DNA of 64,000 nt from an uncultured Ignavibacteria bacterium (GTDB lineage: Bacteria; Zixibacteria; MSB-5A5; CAIYYT01): positions 374,648 to 438,647 of the forward strand of contig CAZTYE010000002.1 in the NCBI GenBank assembly GCA_964617645.1. The letters are read 5' to 3'. Below the pieces are notes generated by a model. That model saw only the letters and a program-made list of their open reading frames with translations, had not been told where the DNA came from and searched no databases. Below are positions 37,336-57,317 of this stretch, piece by piece. The first letter of the stretch is position 1, and every line of letters begins with the position of its first letter. A program made the position numbers and the translations under genes.

Positions 37336-39381
37336 ATGCAAAGGCGTGAGCCTCTGGACAGTTGCCGCGTTTTTCTTCGGGTTGTTGCGGTCATCGTGAC
37401 CCTCGGCATCTTCCTGTTGTCATGTTCGCAGCGGAAGATGAGCGACTTCGAGTTAAACTACCTCACCATGTCGGTTGACCGGATGGTTGTACTCGACGAT
37501 CTCGACTCCGCAGCGCTGCTGATCAATGACCTGGCGCTGCAGCACCCGCGTGATACGGCGATCTTGATGCGCCAGGGCCTGATCAATCGTGAACTGGGCA
37601 GCGTTGAAGGCCGCCGCAAGTCGGAGTTGGCGTTTCGGCGTCTCGTGCAACTTGAGCCGAAAAGCGCCTTGTACCATCTTGAATTGGGCAAGACCCTCGT
37701 CGCGCAGACTTTCGAGATGGAAGGTCGTGGCGAATTGGCGCGATCTATTGACCTCGATCCGGAAAACGAAGAGCCATACCTGATCATGGCCGACCTCTAT
37801 CGCCGGCCTTACTTTATCAACGACTATGCGGACTTCGCCGACTCCGCGCTTGAGGTCCTGCATTCCCTGCTCCGCGAAGACAGCGACAATGTCTCGGCGC
37901 TGGTTCGATTGTCGGAAATCTCTGCGGTGCGCGGCTGGGTCGATAGTTGCCGCTACTTCGCCGATCAAGCCCTCTCCGTCGATTCCTCTTCGCTTCGCAG
38001 CCGGCTGGCGAAGGCCTATTCTGCATATCGCCAAAGCGATCCGGTCGCGGCAACGCGACATTTCGACTACGCTCTCAGTCGCCTCGACTCGGCCGGCCGC
38101 GCCGGCTACGAATCACTCGCCTATCTGATTCGCCCTGACGAGATTTCGGCTTACAACAAGCTGCCTCTTGCCCGCCGCGATTCTCTCAAGTTGCAGCTCT
38201 GGCTCGATTTGGACAACGATCCAACAACCGCCGTTAACGAACGTCAGGTCGAACACTTCGCGCGCGTCTGGATGGCAAACTTAATTTTCTCCGATGAGCG
38301 CTATGACCGCGACGGCTGGAAAACCGACATGGGCGAAACGCTGATTCGGCTGGGGCTGCCGGACGACCGCCGCCGCCAGCGCATCCATTCCAGCAGCGTG
38401 AGTGGGATTCCGGCATGGTACTGGTACTACACGACGACCACCTATCCGTGCACTCTCGCCTTCGTCGATCACATGCTTTCCGGCGAATTCCGCTTTCCCT
38501 TCTCGTACAGCGACAACACCGGCTCGCTGCGCACCAATGAGAGCAAACGCGTCGCCTACTTCAACAATCTGCAAGTTCCCCAGGAATCGGAATTGTCGCG
38601 GGAAACGGCGCCGGTGCAGTTTGACTACGACGTCTATCAGTTTCGCGGCGAGCGCAGCTACACTGATCTGGAGCTAATTGTTTACTCAGCCGGAAACCAG
38701 TTTCGCTCGGGTGAAATAGCTTTTCGCGCCGCGATCCAGGACTTGCGCGGCCGCTTATTCTGGCGCGACGAATCACGACTCGATTATGAATCGACTCGCG
38801 GTGGGTCGGTGGTGACTCGCTTCTCGACCGCTCAACTTCCGGGGGCGAGGCGTCTCGGGATCGTGCTCGACCAATCGGATTCGGGTCTCTATCGCTATCA
38901 AATCGACTCGCTGGCGATTCGGAGCTTTGCGATCACCGGTATCAGTATGTCGGACATCGTTCTCACCGCGCCCGCCAGTGTCCAGCCGAACTCCGTGCGT
39001 ATCGTTCGCGGTGAAACGGAACTGCCGATTGTCGTCGATCGAGCTTACGCGCTCGAAGACACCGTGCGCGTTTACTTCGAGGTCTACGGACTGCCCTTCG
39101 ATCTCACCGGTCGCACCCGCTTCGACGTCACCTACTCGCTTCAGTTCGTCAAGGGCAGCGACAAGGGTCTGAAAGGCCTCTTGGGCAAAGTCTTCCCCGG
39201 CAAACGCGAGTCGATCTCCTACACTTATCGCGAGGGTGGCATCGCCCACGATATCACCCGCGACCTGCAACTCACTGTCGGCGATCTTCGTCCCGGACGT
39301 TACCAACTGACTATCTCTGTAGATGAACTCGTACTCGGAAGCCAGGCTTCGGCCTCGACCGAGCTGATACTGCTGGAGTAG
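37336..39381 (+). CDS. TPR-repeat lipoprotein, hypothetical.
   Basis: 681 aa. Lipobox FLLSCSQ. N-terminal half TPR-like. Confidence 0.5.
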   Translation: MQRREPLDSCRVFLRVVAVIVTLGIFLLSCSQRKMSDFELNYLTMSVDRMVVLDDLDSAALLINDLALQHPRDTAILMRQGLINRELGSVEGRRKSELAFRRLVQLEPKSALYHLELGKTLVAQTFEMEGRGELARSIDLDPENEEPYLIMADLYRRPYFINDYADFADSALEVLHSLLREDSDNVSALVRLSEISAVRGWVDSCRYFADQALSVDSSSLRSRLAKAYSAYRQSDPVAATRHFDYALSRLDSAGRAGYESLAYLIRPDEISAYNKLPLARRDSLKLQLWLDLDNDPTTAVNERQVEHFARVWMANLIFSDERYDRDGWKTDMGETLIRLGLPDDRRRQRIHSSSVSGIPAWYWYYTTTTYPCTLAFVDHMLSGEFRFPFSYSDNTGSLRTNESKRVAYFNNLQVPQESELSRETAPVQFDYDVYQFRGERSYTDLELIVYSAGNQFRSGEIAFRAAIQDLRGRLFWRDESRLDYESTRGGSVVTRFSTAQLPGARRLGIVLDQSDSGLYRYQIDSLAIRSFAITGISMSDIVLTAPASVQPNSVRIVRGETELPIVVDRAYALEDTVRVYFEVYGLPFDLTGRTRFDVTYSLQFVKGSDKGLKGLLGKVFPGKRESISYTYREGGIAHDITRDLQLTVGDLRPGRYQLTISVDELVLGSQASASTELILLE

Positions 39382-39509
39382 CCCAATCCGACTGCTCGAC
39401 TCGCCACACGACGAATGCGATTCTCCGCAGAGGTTTCGCGCCGTGCCATGCCCACGCTTCGAGGGACAATGCGCCCGTCGACTCTCCCGGTAAGGGTAGC
39501 CCACAGCTT

Positions 39510-39640
39510 GAGGGCTGTTGAAAAGCCCTATGAGCTGTCACCCTGAGCGGAGCGAAGGGTCTGTTATCCTTGTGTCGCATCGGAAAACAGATTCTTCGCT
39601 TCGCTCAGAATGACATGAATATGGCTTTTTCAACAGTCCC
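39510..39640. repeat. Dispersed ~135-bp imperfect-hairpin element, copy a (MITE/REP-like).
   Basis: ctgttgaaaagccctatgagctgtcaccctgagcg...gaagggtctgtt...aacagattcttcgcttcgctcagaatgacatgaat...tttttcaacagtc. Termini and internal segments are mutually complementary. Lies in the convergent intergenic region between 37336..39381 and mscL. Confidence 0.75.
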
Positions 39641-39709
39641 CTTGCTGTGGGTGAGTCAAGCAGCTTGAGCCGTCTCGCGAACTGACAACCCCGATCCCCG
39701 CCGGAGCGC

Positions 39710-40105
39710 CTATCGCGAGCGCAAGGTGTCGCGGATTTCGGTCAGAAGTATCTCTTCTTTCGTCGGCGCCGGCGGCGCAGCCGGAGCTTCTTCCTTCTTA
39801 CGCTTCAGCGAATTCATGGCCTTAACTACCATGAAGATCGCGAAGGCGACGATTACAAAGTCAACGACAGTCTGGATGAACTTGCCATATGAGAGCACTA
39901 CGGGCGCCCCTTCGGCAGTTGCGCTCCTGAGCGTGACGGCCAAATTCGAGAAGTCAACGCCACCGAGCATCATGCCGATTGGCGGCATGATGACATCTCC
40001 GACCAGCGACGACACGATTTTTCCGAAAGCGGCGCCGATCACGATACCGACCGCCATATCGACAACGTTTCCGCGCATCGCAAATTCTTTGAATTCCTTG
40101 AGCAT
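39710..40105 (-). CDS. mscL: Large-conductance mechanosensitive channel.
   Basis: 131 aa. [31 protein letters not shown] matches the MscL N-terminus. Confidence 0.9.
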
Positions 40106-48691: not shown

Positions 48692-48780
48692 CATGCGCTC
48701 TTTGATTGCCTCGGTGAACGGTAATCGCCGGGGAAGGAAACAGACCAGGCTTCCCCGCGGCACATGAAGACGATCACCTG

Positions 48781-48811
<31 letters not shown>

Positions 48812-48941
48812 GGCGCGTTTGCATTGCGCGGGACCTGGTCAGTTTCAGACTTCCCCGGCGCCAAGCGATAATACCGCGACGACGGCGGCGAGTCAATCGC
48901 CAAATTCCCCTTACTCCCGTATAGATGAAGATCATCTTGCG

Positions 48942-49007
48942 CACATACGGTGTAGCGGCAGGAATCACTCCGGCTCACACAGTGCGGCGGCAGGAATCAC
49001 TCCAGCA
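48942..49007. repeat. 32-bp head-to-tail tandem repeat, array 1 (2 units).
   Basis: Units cacaYagtgYRgcggcaggaatcactccRgcW directly abutting with no spacers. Confidence 0.8.
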
Positions 49008-49009
49008 CA

Positions 49010-49148
49010 CGGGACTGTTGAAAGAGTCCTATAGGCTGTCACCCTGAGCCGCTGCGCAGGCGAAGGGTCTGTTGGTATTGCTGCACAAGGCCAAGCAGAT
49101 TCTTTGCTGCGCGCAGAATGACATAAATTAGATTTTTCACCAGTCTCA
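49010..49148. repeat. ~135-bp imperfect-hairpin element, copy b.
   Basis: cgggactgttgaaagagtcctataggctgtcaccctgagccgctgcgcaggcgaagggtctgtt...agattctttgctgcgcgcagaatgacataaattagatttttcaccagtctc. About 97% identical to copy c. Confidence 0.75.
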
Positions 49149-49276
49149 CACACTGTGCAGCGGCAGGAATCACTCCGGCTCACACAGTGCAGCGGCAGGA
49201 ATCACTCCGGCTCACACAGTGCGGCGGCAGGAATCACTCCGGCTCACACAGTGCGGCGGCAGGAATCACTCCAGCA
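49149..49276. repeat. 32-bp tandem repeat, array 2 (4 units).
   Basis: cacactgtgcagcggcaggaatcactccggct repeated 4 times with point variants. Spurious ORFs 48965..49183(-) and 49234..49440(-) in the track are translations of these repeats. Confidence 0.85.
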
Positions 49277-49277
49277 C

Positions 49278-49416
49278 ACGGGACTGTTGAAAGAGTCCTA
49301 TAGGCTGTCACCCTGAGCCGCTGCGCAGGCGAAGGGTCTGTTGGTATTGCTGCACAAGGCCAAGCAGATTCTTTGCTGCGCGCAGAATGACATGAATTAG
49401 ATTTTTCAACAGTCTC
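49278..49416. repeat. ~135-bp imperfect-hairpin element, copy c.
   Basis: Near-identical to copy b. Confidence 0.75.
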
Positions 49417-49578
49417 ACACAGTGCGGCGGCAGGAACCACTCCGGCTCACACAGTGCAGCGGCAGGAACCACTCCGGCTCACACTGTGCGGCGGCAGGAA
49501 TCACTCCGGCTCACACAGTGTAGCGGCAGGAATCACTCCGGCTCACACAGTGCGGCGGCAGGAATCCCTTCCTGCCGC
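49416..49578. repeat. 32-bp tandem repeat, array 3 (about 5 units, last unit degenerates into a perfect 10-bp-stem hairpin).
   Basis: Units with aacc/aatc variants. Terminal gcggcaggaatcccttcctgccgc forms gcggcaggaa/ttcctgccgc. Confidence 0.85.
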
Positions 49579-49747: not shown

Positions 49748-51265
49748 ATGTCTTCTGAACAACGTCGCTTGCCGAAATTGACATACAACTGGATCAGCGC
49801 GCTCGGCGCCTTCATCGCCGTCGCAATGGCGCTGGTGCTGGTCGTGATGTTGATCATCAATTTCACCCTCGAACAGACCGGCGCCTATTTCGGCATCTTC
49901 CTCTATATGGTGCTCCCGGCCATTCTGATTTTCGGCCTGCTTCTGATCCCGGTTGGCATGCTCCGCACCTGGCGGCGCTGGAAAAAGGGCGACAAAGTCG
50001 AAATCCCGACTTGGCCGCTGATCGACCTCAATCGCCGCGGTCATCGCAATGCGACCATTGTCTTCATCGCCGGCACCGTGCTCTTCTTGGTGATTACGGC
50101 GGTCGGCAGCTATGAGGCCTACCACTATTCCGAGTCAGTAGAATTCTGCGGCACGACTTGTCACACCGTAATGGAGCCGCAACATACCGCCTATCAGGGT
50201 TCGCCGCACGCGCGCGTCGCCTGTGTCGAGTGCCATGTCGGCACCGGCGCCGGCTGGTACGCCAAATCCAAGCTTTCCGGCGCCTATCAGGTCTACGCGA
50301 CCATCGCCAATGTCTACCCGCGTCCGATCCCGACTCCGATTCGCGATCTGCGTCCGGCGCGGGAAACCTGCGAAGAATGCCACTGGCCGCAGAAAACCTA
50401 CGGCATCGCGCTGCGCAGCTTCACCCATTATCAGTACGATGACGCCAACTCCAAGTGGACTACCGATATGCGAATCATCACCGATACCGGCGAACCGCAT
50501 GAAGGCCAGAAGGCCGGCATTCATTGGCATATCAATCCCGATGTCACGGTCGAGTACATCGCCCGCGACCGGCAGCGCCAGGACATCCCCTGGGTGCGGG
50601 TCACCGAAAAGTCCTCGGGCAAAGTTACCATCTACGAAGACGAATCCAACCCGCTCGATAAATCAGCTCTCGACACACTCGAGGTTCGCGTGATGGACTG
50701 CATCGATTGTCACAACCGCCCGAGCCACGTCTACCGGCCGCCGGATTACGCCGTCGACCGTGCGATTCAATCCGGATTCATCGATCGGTCACTGCCCGGC
50801 TTCAAAGCCGTCGCCGTCGAAGCGATGGCCGGCGAATACGAAACCAAAGATCAGGCGCTCTCGGCGATTTCGACGCGGATCAACGATCACTATCAGGCGG
50901 CCGGTTTGCTCGGCGACCCGGCCAAGCGCCAAGCGGTGCAGTCTTCAATCGCCGGCGTACAGGCGGCCTTCCGGCAGAACATCTTTCCGGAAATGAAAGG
51001 GATGTGGAAACACTACCCGAACAACATCGGCCACTTCTCCGACAAAGGCTGTATGCGCTGTCACATGGGCACGCACAAAAGCGCGGCCGGCGCGGTGATC
51101 ACTCACGATTGCAACGCCTGTCACACGATCCTGGCGCAAGGCCCCGAGGGCGCGATTGTCCGCGATTCGACCGGACAAGGCCTCGAGTTCAGGCATCCGG
51201 TCGACATCGACGAAGCCTGGCGCGAAACCGGCTGCTTCGACTGCCACACTGGCGTGCAACCGTAA
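49748..51265 (+). CDS. Inner-membrane multiheme c-type cytochrome, ImcH-like / NapC-NirT superfamily (7 heme-binding motifs).
   Basis: 505 aa. Two N-terminal TM helices. Six CxxCH (CVECH, CEECH, CIDCH, CMRCH, CNACH, CFDCH) plus one CX3CH (CGTTCH). Confidence 0.65.
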   Translation: MSSEQRRLPKLTYNWISALGAFIAVAMALVLVVMLIINFTLEQTGAYFGIFLYMVLPAILIFGLLLIPVGMLRTWRRWKKGDKVEIPTWPLIDLNRRGHRNATIVFIAGTVLFLVITAVGSYEAYHYSESVEFCGTTCHTVMEPQHTAYQGSPHARVACVECHVGTGAGWYAKSKLSGAYQVYATIANVYPRPIPTPIRDLRPARETCEECHWPQKTYGIALRSFTHYQYDDANSKWTTDMRIITDTGEPHEGQKAGIHWHINPDVTVEYIARDRQRQDIPWVRVTEKSSGKVTIYEDESNPLDKSALDTLEVRVMDCIDCHNRPSHVYRPPDYAVDRAIQSGFIDRSLPGFKAVAVEAMAGEYETKDQALSAISTRINDHYQAAGLLGDPAKRQAVQSSIAGVQAAFRQNIFPEMKGMWKHYPNNIGHFSDKGCMRCHMGTHKSAAGAVITHDCNACHTILAQGPEGAIVRDSTGQGLEFRHPVDIDEAWRETGCFDCHTGVQP

Positions 51266-51450
51266 ACGAGCGCTAGCACACCAGGATCTGCCGGACTCAC
51301 CGGTCGGGAATCTGGACTGACGCCCGCCTGTCAAGTCTGAAGTTGTCCCGGGTTTCGGCTCATACCCCCAATTCCGATCAGATTACGCTGAATAATCCAT
51401 TTTGAGGTGTATTCTTGTCCCCAAAATCTCCCCAACCGATCCCTAAAGTT

Positions 51451-51466
51451 TGTGATGTTTTTCACG
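51451..51466 (+). promoter_or_regulatory. CRP/FNR-family site, distal.
   Basis: tgtgatgtttttcacg = TGTGA-N6-TCACg (9/10 to CRP consensus TGTGA-N6-TCACA). Confidence 0.4.
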
Positions 51467-51568
51467 ATACTATTCAACAAGATGCGAATACATGACAATT
51501 TCATGACAGTTTTTGTTGACCGAGTGTCTGAAACACAATAGTATGCGCACGATATCATGGAGGACTTT

Positions 51569-51584
51569 TGTGACAGTTTTCACA
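51569..51584 (+). promoter_or_regulatory. CRP/FNR-family site, proximal (perfect consensus).
   Basis: tgtgacagttttcaca = TGTGA-N6-TCACA, about 60-75 nt upstream of the decaheme start codon. Consistent with a class-II activator position. Confidence 0.45.
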
Positions 51585-51645
51585 AACACGCTGGCGGCTG
51601 TCACAGATGACAAAGATGGACTTCATACTCTTTCACGGGGTTAGT

Positions 51646-52599
51646 ATGCATAGACACCTAACGAAACCAACCCCGCTAATTCTGTGCATCACCACGACAT
51701 TGCTGATCGCTTTTATCGCCCTTGCCGGCCCCCCATTGTGGGCCGAAAACGGCGAAAGCGACGCGCAGTGTCTCGAGTGCCATCAGGATATGGCGGACAA
51801 TCTGGTTGACGGCAAACACGCACTGACCAAACCCAAAGGCGGCGAACGAATCGCGGTGACCTGCATCGGCTGTCACGGCGACTGGGAGAAGCACATGGAC
51901 GACCCGGAAGCCCACAAGCCGATCGTGCCGTCCAAGCTGCCGATCATTAGGCAAGCCGATGCCTGTGCTTCGTGCCATCAGAACGAGCATCAAATGACGA
52001 TGATCACGACTGATCCGCACAGTCGCAGCGGCCTGCCCTGCTCAAGTTGCCATAAGATTCACGACAACGTCAATGCCGCATCGCTGATCGATGCCGAAGG
52101 CAACTTCTGCCTGACCTGCCACCAAACGGTCGGCGCGCAGTTTGCGTCCCGTTCGGCGCATCCGCTGCACGAGGGTAACGTGCAATGCAACGATTGCCAC
52201 CCGATGAACGACCGCAAGGATCACCAACTCGCGCTCGGATTCGACTGGACCTGTCAGACCTGTCACGCCGAAGTCGCCGGGCCGTTCGTTTACGAACACC
52301 CGGTCAGTTACAATCATCTCGTGCAGGGTGGCGGTTGTGTCGAGTGCCACAGTCCGCACGGATCGCCGAATGAACGGCTGCTGAATCAGCCGGGCAACGG
52401 CGTCTGCTTGCAGTGCCATGGCGTTCCGCCGGGGCATCGCACCGCCCATTCCGGCATGGCGGTCAAAGTCGACTGCGTCAATTGTCATACCGACATCCAC
52501 GGTTCAAATGACAATCGCCTCTTCCTTGACCCGATGCTGACGACCACCTTCTACGCCAACTGTTATGCCTCGGGCTGCCACGACAATTTGAAGAAATGA
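51646..52599 (+). CDS. Periplasmic decaheme c-type cytochrome (MtrA/DmsE-like).
   Basis: Signal peptide from MHRHLTKPTPLILCITTTLLIAFIALAGPPLWA. Ten CxxCH motifs (CLECH, CIGCH, CASCH, CSSCH, CLTCH, CNDCH, CQTCH, CVECH, CLQCH, CVNCH) plus a C-terminal CX4CH. About 320 aa like MtrA. Confidence 0.7.
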   Translation: MHRHLTKPTPLILCITTTLLIAFIALAGPPLWAENGESDAQCLECHQDMADNLVDGKHALTKPKGGERIAVTCIGCHGDWEKHMDDPEAHKPIVPSKLPIIRQADACASCHQNEHQMTMITTDPHSRSGLPCSSCHKIHDNVNAASLIDAEGNFCLTCHQTVGAQFASRSAHPLHEGNVQCNDCHPMNDRKDHQLALGFDWTCQTCHAEVAGPFVYEHPVSYNHLVQGGGCVECHSPHGSPNERLLNQPGNGVCLQCHGVPPGHRTAHSGMAVKVDCVNCHTDIHGSNDNRLFLDPMLTTTFYANCYASGCHDNLKK

Positions 52600-52610
52600 G
52601 GAGAACGATC

Positions 52611-54167
52611 ATGAAGACGCTTAAGCTATTCAGTATCGCGGCGATGATCCTTCTTCTCGGCGTATCCACTTCATTCGGAGCCGGCGGATCCGGCGAGGTC
52701 AAGATCGGATACGTCTATCTCGACGAAGAAGGCAACCAGTCGTCGTACCATCCGACATTCAACCTCTACGAAGGCCCGACCTTCTCGCTGGAAGGATTCC
52801 GCTATCGTTTCGATAACGGTCTCTTGCTGCGCGCCAATCTCGAGAATGTGATCATGAACAATCGCAACTTGAGCGCGTCGCTGTCCAAGCCGGGTCTTTT
52901 CGATCTGCGCGTTGGGCATGACCAGTTCCGCCGCATCTACAGTTTCGATGAGTCCGCCTACACGCGCCGTCACACCGAGCGCGCCTCGCTATCGGTGTAC
53001 GTGCTGCCGCAAATAGAAGTGTTCGGTGGCCTGTTGATGCAGGAACGCACCGGCAAGTCGGAGGATCTTTTCGACCCCAAACCGGTGGCGCGCACCGTCG
53101 AAGTCGACTACCAGCGCATGTTCTTCAATGCCGGTTTGCATGTCTTCCACCACGGCTCGACGATCACCGGCGAGTATCGCGGCGATCAGTTTACCGACAA
53201 CCGCTCCAGCGCTCGCGATCAAATGCGCAGCGAATTCCGTCTCGCCGGTCTGATTTCGATCCCGCGGTATAGCTGGATCAAAGCCGTCGGCGGCTTCCGT
53301 CATTACGAGACGAAATTCGACGAGAGCGACTTCGGCATCTCCAACAACCGCGGCTACGGCGGCGGTCTGGTGCTGCTGCCGCAGAATGTCTCGGTCAAGT
53401 ACGTCGGCGTGCTCGACCGCACCTCGTCCGATTCCGATTTCGTCGCCACTGATAACATGACGCATTCGGGTTATGTGTCCTGGGAAAAGCCGCAGAAATT
53501 CGGCTTCACCGCCGGATATCAATTCGATGTCAACGACGATTACGAAGACGAAGTTCGCGCTAACTCCAGCTACTTCAGCTTCTGGTCAAAACCGGCCAAG
53601 GGCTTCGAGTGGCGCGGCGAGTACGGCATGCGCAAGGAGGAAATCGAGGACGGCGTCCGCCTGACCGGCGACGAGGAATACAACCGTCATCGCACCAGCG
53701 CCAAGTATCGCCACGAAAAGTACGGTTCGATCGGCGTCAAGTGGGACAGCCGCGAGCGCGACAACGACCAGCTCGGCTCGTCGCTCGATATGAACCGTTT
53801 CGGCATCGACGGCGTGCTCTTGGTCGAGAAATACGGCCATATCAATGCCGGGTATGTTTACGGCAAAGGCGAATACGAAAACCGCGAGGCGATGTTCGAG
53901 TTCACCGATCATCTCGTCTTCGGCGATGTGACGACCAAGGAATACAAGGGCGTCACGCTCGGCGGCGGCGCTTTGTACTACCGCAGCAGGCGCGATCTCG
54001 ATGTCGAACACTTCAACGTGCGCTTGACCGGCGCGCTTCGCTTCTATCAGGACTATCGTCTCGAGGTCGAATACAACGCTTACAATTTCGATGACTTGCT
54101 GGTGCTGGATGAGTACTACACCGGCAATGTGGTTCAGATAAGTTTGATCAGAGGATTATCGTTCTAA
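52611..54167 (+). CDS. Outer-membrane beta-barrel porin (MtrB/PioB-like partner of the decaheme cytochrome).
   Basis: Signal peptide MKTLKLFSIAAMILLLGVSTSFGA. Alternating-hydrophobicity strands throughout. C-terminal ...VQISLIRGLSF with terminal Phe. Start overlaps the upstream stop. Confidence 0.6.
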   Translation: MKTLKLFSIAAMILLLGVSTSFGAGGSGEVKIGYVYLDEEGNQSSYHPTFNLYEGPTFSLEGFRYRFDNGLLLRANLENVIMNNRNLSASLSKPGLFDLRVGHDQFRRIYSFDESAYTRRHTERASLSVYVLPQIEVFGGLLMQERTGKSEDLFDPKPVARTVEVDYQRMFFNAGLHVFHHGSTITGEYRGDQFTDNRSSARDQMRSEFRLAGLISIPRYSWIKAVGGFRHYETKFDESDFGISNNRGYGGGLVLLPQNVSVKYVGVLDRTSSDSDFVATDNMTHSGYVSWEKPQKFGFTAGYQFDVNDDYEDEVRANSSYFSFWSKPAKGFEWRGEYGMRKEEIEDGVRLTGDEEYNRHRTSAKYRHEKYGSIGVKWDSRERDNDQLGSSLDMNRFGIDGVLLVEKYGHINAGYVYGKGEYENREAMFEFTDHLVFGDVTTKEYKGVTLGGGALYYRSRRDLDVEHFNVRLTGALRFYQDYRLEVEYNAYNFDDLLVLDEYYTGNVVQISLIRGLSF

Positions 54168-54179
54168 GAGGAGGTTAGT

Positions 54180-55265
54180 ATGAAAGTCCTTAACGCACTA
54201 TTAATCGTCATGTTGGTGGCCGGAATGGCGCTGCTCTCAGGATGCGAGCGCAAGATCGTCAATGAAGTCGCCAACAACGACCAGTCGCTGCTCGGTTGCT
54301 TCGGCTGCCACGGCGAAACCAGTTTCGACGGCGCTCTGCAGCAGGCGCGCGGCGAATGGGAAAACTCGTTCCATGCTTCGGGCATCAGTATCGACTACAC
54401 GAACCGCCCCGGTTCGGACTGTCAGCAATGCCACAACCATCAGGGCTTCCTCGATTGGCTGGCGACCGGCGAAGAAGACTCACTGGCGCTTGGCACGGTC
54501 AGCGCGATCCACTGCTTCACCTGCCACGCTCCGCATGAACGCGGCGATCTGACGCTGCGCGTAACTGAGCCGTACACGCTGAAGAATGGCGTCGTCTTCG
54601 ATCATGGCGCCGCCAATCTCTGCGTACAGTGTCACCATTCACGCACGAGCATCGCGACTGATATCGCCGGCGGCGACACGTTGCGCTTCATTCCGAGTTC
54701 AAGAATGGGCCCGCATCATGGACCGCAAGGCGACAATCTGCAGGGTACGCACGCCTTCCAATTCGGCGCTACGCCGTATGCAAGCTCGACCCACGCGACC
54801 GTCGTTCGTGACGGCTGTATCGGCTGCCACATGGGTAATCCAACTCAGCATGACGGTTACCAGATCGGTGGCCACAGTTTCAATATGCAATTCGAATCCC
54901 ATGACGGAACGACCTATACTCTCGTCGGCGTCTGTCAGTCCTGCCATGCCGGCTACGCCGGTAAGAGCACATTTGATGATGCGACCGTGTTCAATAAGGA
55001 CGTTGATGGCGACGGCGTAGTCGAAGGTATCCAGACCGAATTCGACGGTCTTCACGACTCGCTCGGCGTTTTGTTAGCCAAAGTGATCAACCCGGCGACC
55101 GGATTGTTCCGCACGAATGTGAAAGTCACTCGCGGACAGCAAGGCGCGGCGTACAACTGGAAGATCTACGACGAAGATCGCTCGCGCGGCATGCACAATC
55201 CGAAGTACTTTGAAGCAATGCTCAAGGCCTCGATTGCGCACATGGTTGCCAATCCGATTCCGTAG
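54180..55265 (+). CDS. Outer-membrane lipoprotein hexaheme c-type cytochrome.
   Basis: Lipobox LLSGCE. Six CxxCH (CFGCH, CQQCH, CFTCH, CVQCH, CIGCH, CQSCH). Confidence 0.65.
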   Translation: MKVLNALLIVMLVAGMALLSGCERKIVNEVANNDQSLLGCFGCHGETSFDGALQQARGEWENSFHASGISIDYTNRPGSDCQQCHNHQGFLDWLATGEEDSLALGTVSAIHCFTCHAPHERGDLTLRVTEPYTLKNGVVFDHGAANLCVQCHHSRTSIATDIAGGDTLRFIPSSRMGPHHGPQGDNLQGTHAFQFGATPYASSTHATVVRDGCIGCHMGNPTQHDGYQIGGHSFNMQFESHDGTTYTLVGVCQSCHAGYAGKSTFDDATVFNKDVDGDGVVEGIQTEFDGLHDSLGVLLAKVINPATGLFRTNVKVTRGQQGAAYNWKIYDEDRSRGMHNPKYFEAMLKASIAHMVANPIP

Positions 55266-55330
55266 ATTCGTCCCTCCCGGCGACGTAGCTTTCAGGTTGC
55301 GGCCGCCTTTTGTTAGAGCGTTTCAAGACA

Positions 55331-55367
55331 ACCCTTCGGGTCGCCCGACCCGAAGGGTTTTTGTTTG
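55331..55367 (+). terminator. Rho-independent terminator of the cytochrome operon.
   Basis: acccttcgggtcgcccgacccgaagggtttttgttt: 11-bp GC-rich stem plus T-tract, 66 nt after the stop at 55265. Confidence 0.7.
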
Positions 55368-55518
55368 CCCTACACTCGATCGGAACGGCGCGGCGCCCAA
55401 ATGATGGCTCCGGCAATTGCTGGAGTGCCACATCGGAAGGGACGCTTGAAAAAGTCAGTGAATCACTCAATGTGAGGCGGCAAGAGTCCTTTCCTGCCGC
55501 AACTGAAGCGGTCAGTCA

Positions 55519-55643
55519 AGTCAAGTAGGTCAGGAGCTCTGCGCTCCTGACATCACGCCGCAGGCGTGATAATCGTGGGCGCGAATTCACACCGTCCCCC
55601 GCTTTCGAGGCCGAAGGCCGCGCAATGCGCCAACGTCGCATTC
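55519..55643. repeat. ~125-bp direct repeat, copy 1 (copy 2 at 55786..55910, about 85% identical).
   Basis: agtcaagtaggtcaggagcYctgcgctcctgacatcacgccgcaggcgtgaYaatcgtgggcRcgaatt... Contains hairpins gtcaggagc/gctcctgac and tcacgcc/ggcgtga. Confidence 0.7.
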
Positions 55644-55785
55644 CCACTATTTCTGTTGCGCAGAGTCTTCCGAGTACCGCGTGCGGGACGAGGGCGACTC
55701 GGCGCCCTCACTCCCACCACTCTGGTGGGGCACCAAAAGGTCTCGACGACCCCCGATTCCGTCATTCCGGCGAAAGCCGGAATCC

Positions 55786-55910
55786 AGTCAAGTAGGTCAG
55801 GAGCCCTGCGCTCCTGACATCACGCCGCAGGCGTGACAATCGTGGGCACGAATTTACATCGTCCCGCGCTCCAGCGGCCGAATGCCGCGCAATGCGCCAT
55901 CGGCGCATTC
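55786..55910. repeat. ~125-bp direct repeat, copy 2.
   Basis: See copy 1. Confidence 0.7.
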
Positions 55911-55931
55911 TTCGGCGGCGCAGCCGCTTCA

Positions 55932-55992
55932 ATTCCCCTCTTGAGAGGGGTGCTGTCCCGCACCATCGGTGCGGGATGGCGGGGTGTGTCAC
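55932..55992. repeat. Palindrome-rich ~60-bp element, second copy of 12795..12854.
   Basis: attcccctcttgagaggggtgctgtcccgcaccatcggtgcgggatggcggggtgtgtcactc. Confidence 0.7.
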
Positions 55993-56114
55993 TCGCGGGC
56001 GCATCGTCCCGCAAAGCGCAGGTCCTTCGGCCATGTGCTCCCACGCGCCACACTGCCCGTCGCGCAGGGGCGCTTCGCGCCGTGCCTTGCCCTTGTCATC
56101 CGTGCCCCACCGGA

Positions 56115-56246
56115 AGGGACAGTTGAAAAAGCCCTATAGGCTGTCACCCTGAACGAAGTGAAGGGTCTGTTTTCCTTCTGGCACAACGGCAAACAGATTC
56201 TTCGCTGCGCTCAGAATGACATGAATCCGGTTTTTCAACAGTCCCG
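56115..56246. repeat. ~135-bp imperfect-hairpin element, copy d.
   Basis: gacagttgaaaaagccctataggctgtcaccctgaacgaagtgaagggtctgtt...aacagattcttcgctgcgctcagaatgacatgaatccggtttttcaacagtcc. Convergent intergenic region between the OM cytochrome and the CoA-binding gene. Confidence 0.75.
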
Positions 56247-56713
56247 GAACGGTGGGATTCCCCCTCTCCCTGTCAGGGAGAGGGGCAGGGGTGAGGGTCA
56301 TTTTCCTCCCCCAACCCCGTAAACTCGTAGCATTCCACTACAATTTTCCCCCATCGGACCCTTAGTAGAGGCACGATTGTAATCGCGGATGATTTCACCC
56401 GCCGATCTCGCCCTCGTACCTGACGTGTTCTTTGGCGGCCGCCATTGTCGTAAAAACGCGAACCGCGGCAGGACAAGGCGTCGAGATCAAATCCAAACTC
56501 CGGTGGCTTGCGACGCCGGTAACCGGATGCGAGAAGATCAACCGCAGTGCAATCGCTTCAGAACCGTCGTTCGGGATTTCCGGAAACGTGACGCTCACAC
56601 TGGGCGCGGCGCAACGTGAAAGTCCGATCAGGCACCTGATTAGCTCGAGCTATGCCCTATTTTTTGCGAAAGGACAAACTTAGCGAGAAACACGAGACTC
56701 AAAGAACCGACAC

Positions 56714-57178
56714 TTACTTCGGAACTCTCCCCGTAATCTTGGCGAACCACCAATGCAGATTATGCGGAAAACCCGGATTCGGGAGAAACATGAACGGACA
56801 GTGTCCTTCAATCACGTCGATATGATGTTCGCGGCAGTAGGCGACAGCGTTCGGGCTTACCGCGCCGGCTCCCACCGCGCGATACAGCCAGACACTCTTG
56901 ATTCCGGCCGCGTGACATTCGCGGACGATGTCTTCCGTGACTTCCGGCTTCGTCATGATCAGCGCTCCGGTGACGGGCGGAGTGATCTCTTTGACCGAGG
57001 CGAAACAATGCCGCTCGTCGATCAACGACACCATCGGATTGACCGGAACGACGTCATAGCCGCGCTTCCACAATTCGTGCATTAGCGAGCGCGAAAAATC
57101 CTTCGGTTCGCGCGCCACACCGATCATCGCGACGCGCTTTTGCGACAGGAACGATTCGATTTGTGATCGCTGGGTCAT
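56714..57178 (-). CDS. CoA-binding domain protein (YccU-like).
   Basis: Start at MTQRSQIESFLSQKRVAMIGVAREPKDFSRSLMHELWKRGYDVVPVNP (CoA_binding_2 signature). Confidence 0.6.
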   Translation of the reverse strand: MTQRSQIESFLSQKRVAMIGVAREPKDFSRSLMHELWKRGYDVVPVNPMVSLIDERHCFASVKEITPPVTGALIMTKPEVTEDIVRECHAAGIKSVWLYRAVGAGAVSPNAVAYCREHHIDVIEGHCPFMFLPNPGFPHNLHWWFAKITGRVPK

Positions 57179-57317
57179 AACTTCCTCCCGGCAGAACCAT
57201 CGGTCGGACAACTCTTCCATCCGAAGCTAAATACTTGATCGACTAATCTGTCAAGGAATAGTTTCGCCGTCCAAAACGCATTGCCCAATCACTTCGACTG
57301 CAATAAGTTCGCCAGCG

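Follow-up and report, generated by a model that had tools for sequence, protein, structure and literature searches.

Composite repeats of inverted REP-type units in a 64-kb stretch of an uncultured Ignavibacteria genome: a probable dispersed DNA element

We analyzed a 64,000-nucleotide stretch of DNA, hereafter the window, from an uncultured Ignavibacteria bacterium placed in the Zixibacteria by GTDB (GCA_964617645.1, contig CAZTYE010000002.1, positions 374,648 to 438,647 of the forward strand). An earlier note on this DNA had described a dispersed, imperfectly palindromic element of about 135 bp in four copies (here a to d), and had read it as a novel repeat resembling miniature inverted-repeat transposable elements (MITEs) or repetitive extragenic palindromes (REPs), or else as a family of structured small RNAs (sRNAs). 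All four copies were re-located in the window sequence within 1-3 nt of where that note had put them. They align over ~135 columns with a mean column identity of 83%, and their GC content is 0.49-0.51, against 0.568 for the whole window. CGCTCAGAATGACAT, with up to three mismatches allowed, was matched 7 times in the window (2.2 expected), and GGGACTGTTGAAAAAG was matched 8 times (0.4 expected); none of 100 shuffles reached either count. Our results suggest that the element is probably a non-coding, non-autonomous dispersed DNA repeat, in which a REP-type inverted dimer forms the core and a shell surrounds it, and not an RNA gene.

Four intergenic copies of a two-layered element

All four copies are intergenic, as had been described, and only spurious open reading frames (ORFs) cross the element. 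Copy a lies in a convergent gap between a GWxTD/TPR gene (ending at 39381) and mscL (39710-40105, minus strand), and copy d in a second convergent gap between the last gene of a multihaem-cytochrome/MtrB-like cluster (ending at 55265) and a CoA-binding gene (56714-57220, minus). Copies b and c had been assigned to a divergent gap between dnaX and the cytochrome genes. The gap is indeed divergent and ends at the first cytochrome gene (49748), but its other border is the small bacterial signal recognition particle (SRP) RNA gene (RF00169, 65.5 bits; 48740-48840, minus), which sits just upstream of dnaX. Copies b and c belong to a single 269-bp higher-order tandem duplication (96% identity). Consequently, the four copies are all present but they represent three independent insertions in the window. 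No transposase ORF adjoins any of them, and the boundaries are identical in all four. The closest GWxTD homologues were only ~50% identical and not syntenic, and provided no empty-site comparison.

The element is built of two layers, an inverted dimer of a 28-nt unit lying inside a shell with terminal inverted repeats (GGGACTGTTGAAAAAG). The unit has the consensus T-GTCA-YY-CT-GA-GC-GNA-GC-GA-AG-RR-T-CTG, and within the dimer the tags point outward and the tails inward. On the plus strand it reads TGTCA-CC-CTGAGCGGAGCGAAG-GG-TCTG and on the minus strand TGTCA-TT-CTGAGCGAAGCGAAG-AA-TCTG, with a spacer of 24-30 nt between the two. Its hairpin comprises five Watson-Crick pairs (A-YY-CT / AG-RR-T), a G.A and an A.G, a G-C and a C-G, and a GNA triloop. 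The stem thus has nine stacked positions starting with A-T and T-A, of which positions 6-7 are the conserved, non-Watson-Crick G.A/A.G; the loop is 3 nt long (GNA), occasionally GNNA. An unpaired TGTC tag and a 3-nt CTG tail border the hairpin, CTG being fixed by our search pattern. The unit appears to match the CGTC/TGTC-tagged REP superfamily.

The shell contributes a palindromic arm of ~25 nt on each side (GGGACTGTTGAAAAAGCC...GGCTTTTTCAACAGTCCC), and the arms of this outer layer read GGGACTGTTGAAAAAGCCctat... and ...atGGCTTTTTCAACAGTCCC. The terminal inverted repeats GGGACAGTTGAAAAA / TTTTTCAACAGTCCC extend over 15 nt with 93% complementarity, within a 25-nt arm in copy a, and the same shell ends are found in all four copies. 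The shell arms act as terminal inverted repeats. The coordinates of these features and of the insertion sites are collected in Table 1.

Table 1 Copies of the element, their parts and their insertion sites in the window
Feature	Position	Strand	Description
Copy a	39511-39640	+	Complete composite, 130 bp: shell arm, 5' unit (CC/GG), 24-nt spacer, inverted 3' unit (TT/AA), shell arm
Unit a1	39536-39563	+	TGTCACCCTGAGCGGAGCGAAGGGTCTG
Unit a2	39588-39615	-	TGTCATTCTGAGCGAAGCGAAGAATCTG
Left flank, copy a	39500-39510		Stem CCCACAG (39500-39506) and direct repeat CTTG (39507-39510)
Right flank, copy a	39641-39651		CTTG (39641-39644) and stem CTGTGGG (39645-39651)
Junction, copy a			CCCACAG-CTTG / AGGGCTGTTG...CAACAGTCCC / CTTG-CTGTGGG; predicted empty site CCCACAG-CTTG-CTGTGGG
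Copy b	49011-49147	+	137 bp; within the 32-bp tandem-repeat array
Copy b, 5' unit	49037-49071		Loop enlarged by 7 nt
Copy b, 3' unit	49096-49123	-	
Direct repeats, copy b	49007-49010, 49148-49151		ACAC
Copy c	49280-49416	+	137 bp; tandem duplicate of copy b
Direct repeats, copy c	49276-49279, 49417-49420		ACAC
Junction, copies b and c			GC-ACAC / GGGACTGTTG...CAGTCTC / ACAC-AGTGC; predicted empty site GCAC-ACA-GTGC
Copy d	56116-56245	+	130 bp
Copy d, first unit	56142-56169	+	GAAC..GTGA variant of the mini-hairpin
Copy d, second unit	56194-56221	-	
Left flank, copy d	56106-56115		Stem CCCACC and direct repeat GGAA (56112-56115)
Right flank, copy d	56246-56256		GGAA (56246-56249) and stem CGGTGGG (56250-56256)
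Junction, copy d			CCCACC-GGAA / GGGACAGTTG...CAACAGTCCC / GGAA-CGGTGGG; predicted empty site CCCACCG-GAA-CGGTGGG
Uninterrupted loci			Predicted sequences of the three loci: CCCACAGCTTGCTGTGGG, CCCACCGGAACGGTGGG, GCACACAGTGC
Solo left shell end	55439-55454	+	Truncated, GGGACGCTTGAAAAAG; preceded by CGGAA as in copy d
CGTC-tagged REP	55760-55787	+	Classical form, CGTCATTCCGGCGAAAGCCGGAATCCAG: 8-bp stem, GAAA loop, CCA tail; DNA fold -9 kcal/mol, z -5

Spread and fold of the 28-nt unit

We scanned viral and metagenome contigs with the pattern GTCANNCTGAGCN{3,12}GAAGNNTCTG, which leaves the variable pairs of the unit unconstrained. Viral contigs gave 44 matches in 38 contigs, and the NN/NN positions were complementary in 44/44 (TT/AA, TC/GA, TA/TA, CC/GG). 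Metagenome contigs gave at least 137 distinct units in at least 120 contigs, with 130/137 complementary among the matches listed and five pair types. All dimer, logo, neighbour and orientation statistics given here are drawn from units and loci among the matches listed in these contig scans. In a logo of 135 units, T precedes GTCA in 119 (GTC itself being fixed by the pattern) and no information extends beyond the 28 nt, which indicates that the unit is sharply bounded. A sequence-only search with a hidden Markov model (HMM) revealed that one more pair, the third, covaries: in the mini-hairpin G-C changes to A-T (CTGAAC...GTGAAG), a variant also seen in copy d; the G.A and A.G positions were invariant in the units found this way. 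Units occur singly and as tandem arrays, most often as inverted dimers with the tags outward (63 inverted '+-' pairs vs 14 '-+' and 32 tandem, with a spacer mode of 13-14 nt). Heterodimers make up 40 of 57 dimers.

The fold of the whole element had been part of the argument for a structured RNA. As claimed, each copy folds into one long stem-loop (-58 to -86 kcal/mol as RNA, z -4.6 to -12.8 for the plus strand), and the segment pairs named as complementary are so, with arms of 34, 25 and 11 nt at 82-91%. The opposite strand folds nearly as well. It had also been claimed that compensatory differences between copies a/d and b/c preserve pairing and argue for selection on this structure; double changes were seen at 2 of the 45 predicted pairs of the long hairpin, and the claim holds for these two and no further. 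The apparent mismatches of the long hairpin (CC vs AA, and the GG vs TT wobble) are the very positions at which each unit pairs perfectly with itself.

Covariation was then measured in 40 dimers from unrelated contigs, with the spacers removed and 500 shuffles as the reference. The two local hairpins had 98.4% of cells paired, compared with 88.3% after shuffling, a value that 0/500 shuffles reached; their covariation score was 0.349 (0.143 shuffled), and both sides had changed in 9 of 14 pairs. In contrast, the long inter-unit hairpin was paired at 88.8% vs 89.2% in shuffles, of which 405/500 reached the observed value, and its covariation score was 0.096 vs 0.103. The covariation that the earlier note had proposed to look for is therefore present in the unit hairpin and absent from the long one, and selection on the long stem-loop is not borne out. 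In 17 of 57 dimers both units carry the same YY, equal to the random expectation of 0.298, and 106 of 114 units are self-complementary. The long stem-loop exists physically, and only because its halves are inverted copies of one consensus. What is maintained, by selection or by copying fidelity, is the unit's own hairpin. Thus, the structural argument for an RNA fails.

Other tests of an RNA role gave negative results. In the window, only the SRP RNA passed the Rfam 15 gathering threshold, and at E <= 10 the element drew only spurious microRNA/snoRNA hairpin matches, far below threshold. No promoter-like or terminator-like site was called at any copy; a run of five T lies within the 3' arm and not after the stem. 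An all-against-all BLAST of 2,244 ORFs within 1.5 kb of units revealed no recurrent neighbour family beyond redundant phage contigs, and Pfam assigned the 150 nearest neighbour proteins to 175 families with at most three members each and no transposase. The same Pfam results do not support a suspected association with small GIY-YIG nuclease genes. Across 158 loci, units showed no bias of orientation or position relative to genes: downstream of genes 44 had the same orientation vs 40 the opposite, upstream 38 vs 34, and the gaps bearing units were convergent in 20 cases, divergent in 14 and tandem in 44. The lack of gene linkage, strand bias, Rfam match and promoter or terminator argues against a cis-regulatory or sRNA role and in favor of a dispersed DNA repeat.

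We consider it highly improbable that the copies are a family of small structured RNA genes. The strongly negative folding z-scores, the multiple conserved intergenic copies and the two compensatory pairs among them would fit such a family, which the earlier note had proposed. However, besides the absence of any Rfam family, recurrent neighbour, promoter-like site or covariation of the long stem-loop, the two strands do not differ much in how well they fold, units are found in either orientation, arrayed in tandem, nested and inside ORFs, and covariation backs only the 21-nt unit hairpin, symmetrically on both strands.

Some E. coli REPs have been shown to terminate transcription or to protect mRNA from 3' exonucleases. 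An improbable, though somewhat better founded, alternative is that the element is a hairpin exapted by the host, transcribed at gene 3' ends where it would stop transcription or shield mRNA from 3' exonucleases. Copies a and d do lie in convergent gaps just 3' of genes, the long hairpin is very stable as RNA, and PMC3733652 reports REPs as lying mostly downstream of genes and as plausibly transcribed. Against this, the hairpin is not followed by a T-run, the cytochrome gene already has a canonical terminator of its own on its 3' side (55330-55359), the gap that holds copies b and c is a divergent promoter region, and neither the unbiased placement of units nor the missing covariation of the long hairpin is expected. 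The shell ends, direct repeats and nested insertions would also be left unexplained. If the element is a dispersed DNA repeat, effects on flanking genes, such as hairpins at the 3' ends in the two convergent gaps, would be secondary.

An HMM of the four copies found full-length relatives with shell arms in four loci (L078, L108, L127 and L042) and partial ones in ~10 further loci; their arms vary among elements (CAGGCTGCTGAAAAAA, CAGGTTGCGGAAAAAG, GGGAGTGTTGAAGAAG) and match within each element, and most other dimers have no shell. The 20-mer CCTATRRGCTGTCACCCTGA had no exact match in 185,579 species genomes except for one chance palindrome in a metagenome-assembled genome of the Spirochaetes, which suggests that the composite subfamily of the window is probably rare or lineage-specific. 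BLAST of the element itself against plasmids and cultured phages gave no match. With the consensus dimer as the query, copies were found on plasmids of Planktothrix agardhii, Calothrix sp. PCC 7716 and Granulicella tundricola, whose sequences we inspected; matches in Phocaeicola massiliensis (Bacteroidota) and in the gammaproteobacterium Aquicella were seen by BLAST only and not inspected. By direct reading, the unit spans at least two phyla, Cyanobacteriota and Acidobacteriota. The exact unit string was not found in the literature searched nor in the supplements of PMC3733652. Sequences from soil, sediment and cyanobacteria commonly contain the unit; it is easily mistaken for an sRNA or for spurious peptides such as V-I-L-S-E-A-K-D-L, and a model of it would help annotation.

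Three further observations were made on units in these contigs. In L042 (11440-11490) and L146 (minus strand, ~2290-2340) the GC-GNA-GC mini-hairpin is swapped for a longer GC-rich hairpin, e.g. GTCATTCTGA-agccgggcgctttttccgggct-GATGAATCTG, so that the structure is kept and the sequence replaced. One family of phage-like contigs (L009, L018, L023, L025 and L037) carries at least three co-oriented units between viral genes, each followed by CGGTTGC and two of them 2,037 bp apart; these could be a regulatory or packaging-related hairpin of the phage rather than a mobile repeat. In plasmid p1 of Planktothrix agardhii (L166, 1440-1640), a unit dimer and a run of half-units (CTCAGAATGACA repeated) lie in a coding sequence annotated as a BREX PglX methyltransferase. 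Stop codons occur there in one translated frame, which was not matched to the annotation, and the PglX annotation, or the gene, may be disrupted.

Insertion sites and possible routes of mobilization

The shell ends are flanked by 4-bp direct repeats, CTTG for copy a, GGAA for copy d and ACAC for copies b and c, which lie within inverted flanks of 7, 7 and 4 bp, respectively (Table 1). The chance probability of each such repeat is ~1/256. The flanking 4-mers are in direct orientation, whereas a palindrome would demand the inverted one. Inverted flanks lie outside them. The simplest reading of these junctions would be a 4-bp target duplication that arose when the element entered the apex of a small hairpin already present at the site. 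The target-site duplications that the earlier note had advised looking for thus appear to flank all three insertions, although in copy d the GGAA may have been inherited. The insertion site of copies b and c lies within one unit of the 32-bp tandem array, and L108, a metagenome relative of the same subfamily, carries TAGT on both sides with a 1-nt offset.

Units are also found inside units. L087 and L138 share 94% identity across 3.5 kb; what sets them apart is a 60-nt insert that carries a unit and sits precisely at the GAA loop of another unit. Six unrelated contigs (L003, L039, L114, L138, L146 and L151, e.g. L114 860-960 and L138 260-400) share a module nested to three levels, CAGAYYCTTCGC-g-GAGTYTACCCTGAGC-spacer-[complete reverse unit]-GCGAAGGGCTCAGRRTGACA, with a unit in the loop of a unit twice over and the orientation alternating. 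The truncated solo shell end and the GC content of the element, lower than that of the window, are further signs of mobility.

Taken together, these data are in keeping with the MITE/REP-like part of the earlier description: an inverted REP-type dimer sits in a shell that ends in inverted repeats and is flanked by 4-bp direct repeats. The element is most likely a composite of REP dimers of the CGTC/TGTC-tagged superfamily with MITE-like ends and putative target duplications. Regarding the enzyme, two proposals are considered. The 4-bp duplications favor a staggered-cut transposase acting in trans, which would recognize the shell ends and cut hairpin loops or the centres of palindromes with a 4-bp stagger, as for MITEs; we regard this as a serious candidate, just short of probable. 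The REP nature of the core favors instead an HUH-Y1 enzyme on single-stranded hairpins, such as a REP-associated tyrosine transposase (RAYT) or TnpA-Y1, for which the units would be substrates read in the 'clover' fold and not as the long hairpin; this is possible, though we would not bet on it.

Several points weigh against our reading of the element. Target duplications are not a product of HUH-Y1 transposition, and the 4-bp repeats are thus at odds with the REP/RAYT analogy. A tblastn search with E. coli RayT in the window and 163 loci gave nothing below E = 0.08, a regular expression for the HUH...Y motif had 0 matches in the window and the unit-bearing loci (~1.1 Mb), and neither the window nor the viral contigs yielded an autonomous element bounded by these ends. 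The solo shell end (55434-55454) carries CGGAA-GGGAC like copy d, so the GGAA could be inherited and not duplicated; the flanking stems of copies a and d are alike (CCCACAG and CCCACCG); no empty copy of such a target hairpin occurs in the window; and bare units and shell-less dimers showed no flanking direct repeats above expectation. The ORF calling behind the orientation statistics was crude. Finally, with standard nearest-neighbour parameters the isolated unit hairpin is weak (-1.9 to -3.7 kcal/mol) and does not outperform its shuffles, and the case for it consequently rests on covariation. Those parameters give no credit to sheared G.A pairs or GNA triloops. Mini-hairpins of the d(GCGAAGC) type are stable, and ATTCTGAGCGAAGCGAAGAAT would be the DNA sequence of the sheared G.A/GNA hairpin that we propose.

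Further leads on an enzyme or a relative were discarded. The one weak RayT match (E 0.08) is a phage ORF that resembles a capsid gene and has no HUH-Y motif. A scan of viral contigs for the shell end gave 114 matches, approximately the estimated chance number, and a recurrent 1,044-bp 'pair' of ends in that scan lies inside a long phage structural-gene ORF. On inspection, an integron attC site does not fit, as its GTTGAAA and TTTCAAC boxes would follow each other in the opposite order to R''...R'.

A classical REPIN (an inverted pair of REPs) is unlikely in our view but deserves attention. In this reading, a single-copy HUH-Y1 transposase (a RAYT, or a class 3 or terminal-inverted-repeat-associated TnpA-Y1), with its gene at another place in the genome, would excise dimer and shell as single-stranded DNA and reinsert them, and the 4-bp repeats would be coincidental or inherited. 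The unit fits the REP definition and the inverted-dimer arrangement, bare units and dimers occur without target duplication, and the shell end GGGACAG resembles the GGGGWSAS motif of repeats flanking tyrosine transposases associated with terminal inverted repeats. REPINs made of a related Neisseria 21-mer, ATTCCCGCGCAGGCGGGAATC, have been linked to a Group 2 RAYT (Bertels & Rainey). Atypical hairpins whose 5' foot is CnGA flank the class 3 HUH-Y1 genes of Acidobacteria and Planctomycetes, at ~600 copies in Solibacter (Quentin et al. 2018); the reverse strand of our unit starts with CAGA, a likeness that we treat as a lead only. Against a REPIN stand the exact 4-bp direct repeats, which differ in sequence at three independent insertions and which Y1 transposition does not make, the tag (TGTC, not GTAG), and the lack of a Y1 gene in the window or in the ~1.1 Mb of unit-bearing loci; nor did Di Nocera et al. 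find a dedicated transposase beside CGTC REPs.

The copies might also be fragments or ends of a larger known insertion sequence (IS), a possibility we find barely credible. Their terminal inverted repeats do look like IS ends; they may resemble those of the IS5 family, and perhaps those of IS903. However, the same two boundaries are found in all four copies with no adjoining transposase ORF, no partner shell end lies 0.7-3 kb away within the window, and the scan for ends in viral contigs gave only chance matches. A more far-reaching proposal, which we think quite unlikely, is that the 28-nt unit would be an undescribed single-strand DNA module shared across phyla, whose nested insertions would reveal hairpin-loop-specific integration with 4-bp duplications, distinct from both RAYT/IS200 and sequence-targeted DDE transposition. 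The shell in a small hairpin, the unit in a unit loop and the three-level 'Russian-doll' modules may be cases relevant to such integration.

If the element is indeed a REP-dimer composite, the window would offer a clean, small example of how CGTC/TGTC-tagged REPs spread without any transposase tied to them, and the unit hairpin, not the long stem-loop, would be what evolution preserves. The target duplications and hairpin-apex targets would constrain the chemistry of integration, and the shell would be conserved between a gammaproteobacterium, represented by a published consensus, and this distant lineage.

The surroundings of the copies are rich in other repeats. Between 48950 and 49566 there are ~11 copies of the 32-bp tandem repeat CTCACACAGTGCGGCGGCAGGAATCACTCCGG, interrupted by copies b and c, and a hairpin, GCGGCAGGAA-tccc-TTCCTGCCGC (49555-49578), closes the array on the upstream side of the cytochrome operon. 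GCCGCTGCGCAG, the enlarged loop of the 5' unit in copies b and c, and CTGTGCAGCGGC in this flanking repeat show 92% complementarity (49048-49059; 49153-49164), which suggests a possible exchange of sequence between the loop of the element and its surroundings. A 1.4-kb intergenic stretch contains, at 55360-56100, a mosaic of other repeats that includes the CGTC REP, the solo shell end, and a ~120-bp direct repeat (about 55505-55620 and 55785-55900) with the palindromes GTCAGGAGC-n5-GCTCCTGAC and ATCACGCC-gcag-GCGTGAT; several hairpins of the mosaic also begin with GTCA. Directly after copy d, at 56261-56285, stands a perfect 12-bp palindrome, CCCCTCTCCCTG-t-CAGGGAGAGGGG, followed by GGCAGGGGTGAGGG, which looks like another type of dispersed repeat. 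The cluster bracketed by copies b/c and d (49748-55265) encodes multihaem c-type cytochromes (NapC/NirT-like, with paired CXXCH, and MtrC/MtrF-like) and a protein with a weak match to MtrB/PioB-like porins, and is possibly an outer-membrane electron-conduit module.

Comparison with known systems

Di Nocera, De Gregorio & Rocco (2013) divided REPs into GTAG- and CGTC-tagged superfamilies (PMC3733652). The CGTC superfamily consists of palindromic units of 20-40 nt with an unpaired CGTC/TGTC/CCTC tag at one end, CGTC being 'changed to TGTC ... in many repeats'; the stem has 8-9 bp and starts with A-T pairs, the loop has 4-5 nt, and the unpaired 3-nt tail has the consensus CCA. These REPs form mostly inverted (HH) dimers, often heterodimers, and 'lack a dedicated transposase' (PMC3733652). 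Our unit shares the unpaired 5' tag, the stem beginning with A-T, the 3-nt tail, the predominance of inverted dimers and the absence of a transposase gene nearby. Unlike the published CGTC REPs, it has a stem interrupted by a conserved tandem G.A/A.G, a 3-nt GNA loop and a CTG tail. Its hosts (Cyanobacteria, Acidobacteriota and viral contigs) differ from those listed for CGTC REPs, and its element has 4-bp direct repeats, which PMC3733652 does not report. The classical unit at 55760-55787 appears to belong to the same superfamily and to a different family.

The resemblance extends to the shell. In H. neapolitanus, all CGTC-1 dimers are nested in the palindrome GGGaaGCTT-GAAAaACC...GGTaTTTCgAAGC-gCCC, also given with the right arm attcacgGGTaTTTCgAAGC-gCCC, and no empty palindromes were found (PMC3733652). 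Similarly, dimers in the window lie inside an outer palindrome, of which the window holds no empty copies. The left-arm consensus of H. neapolitanus, taken from the published consensus only, is identical to the shell at 14 of 17 positions, a score reached by 0 of 20,000 random 18-mers of the window. Consequently, the novelty claimed for the element holds in part: the interrupted stem, GNA loop, CTG tail and host range set it apart from the described families, while dimers of CGTC/TGTC REPs in a near-identical outer palindrome have been known since 2013 (PMC3733652).

Like REPIN-RAYT systems (Bertels & Rainey 2011, PMC3116915; bioRxiv 10.1101/2021.07.10.451892), the element combines two inverted REPs and a spacer that form a long hairpin, and it is extragenic, multicopy and non-coding. 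In earlier work, Bertels & Rainey proposed that RAYTs recognize a 'clover' fold, in which each REP is folded alone, and not the stable long hairpin; it is this less stable fold that covariation backs here. The element differs from REPIN-RAYT systems in that no RAYT was found in the window or the 163 loci, in its tag (TGTC, CAGA on the opposite strand, in place of the 5' GT[AG]G guide tetranucleotide), in its additional shell with inverted ends, and in its flanking 4-bp direct repeats.

With bacterial MITEs such as Correia/NEMIS, RUP and Nezha, the element shares its length of 130-137 bp, the lack of an ORF, terminal inverted repeats of 15-18 bp, short flanking direct repeats, an intergenic location and the ability to fold into a long hairpin. 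Unlike MITEs, it has no known parent insertion sequence, its interior is a dimer of an independently dispersed REP unit instead of a deleted IS, and its putative target is a hairpin apex, not a sequence motif.

IS1397 and ISKpn1 are insertion sequences that target REP loops. The composite, too, would have been inserted at the centre of small GC-rich hairpins with 3-4-nt loops (CCCACAG-CTTG-CTGTGGG, CCCACCG-GAA-CGGTGGG and GCAC-ACA-GTGC here, and in L138 the GAA loop of another unit), as were the GTAG-23 REPs of T. roseum, found in the small palindrome CCGSSCC(n3,4)GGSSCGG (PMC3733652). What distinguishes it from these insertion sequences is that the inserted DNA is itself palindromic and non-coding, and that hairpins nest several levels deep. 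A likely parallel is the nesting of very small mobile repeats in cyanobacterial genomes, reportedly described by Elhai et al. in 2008.

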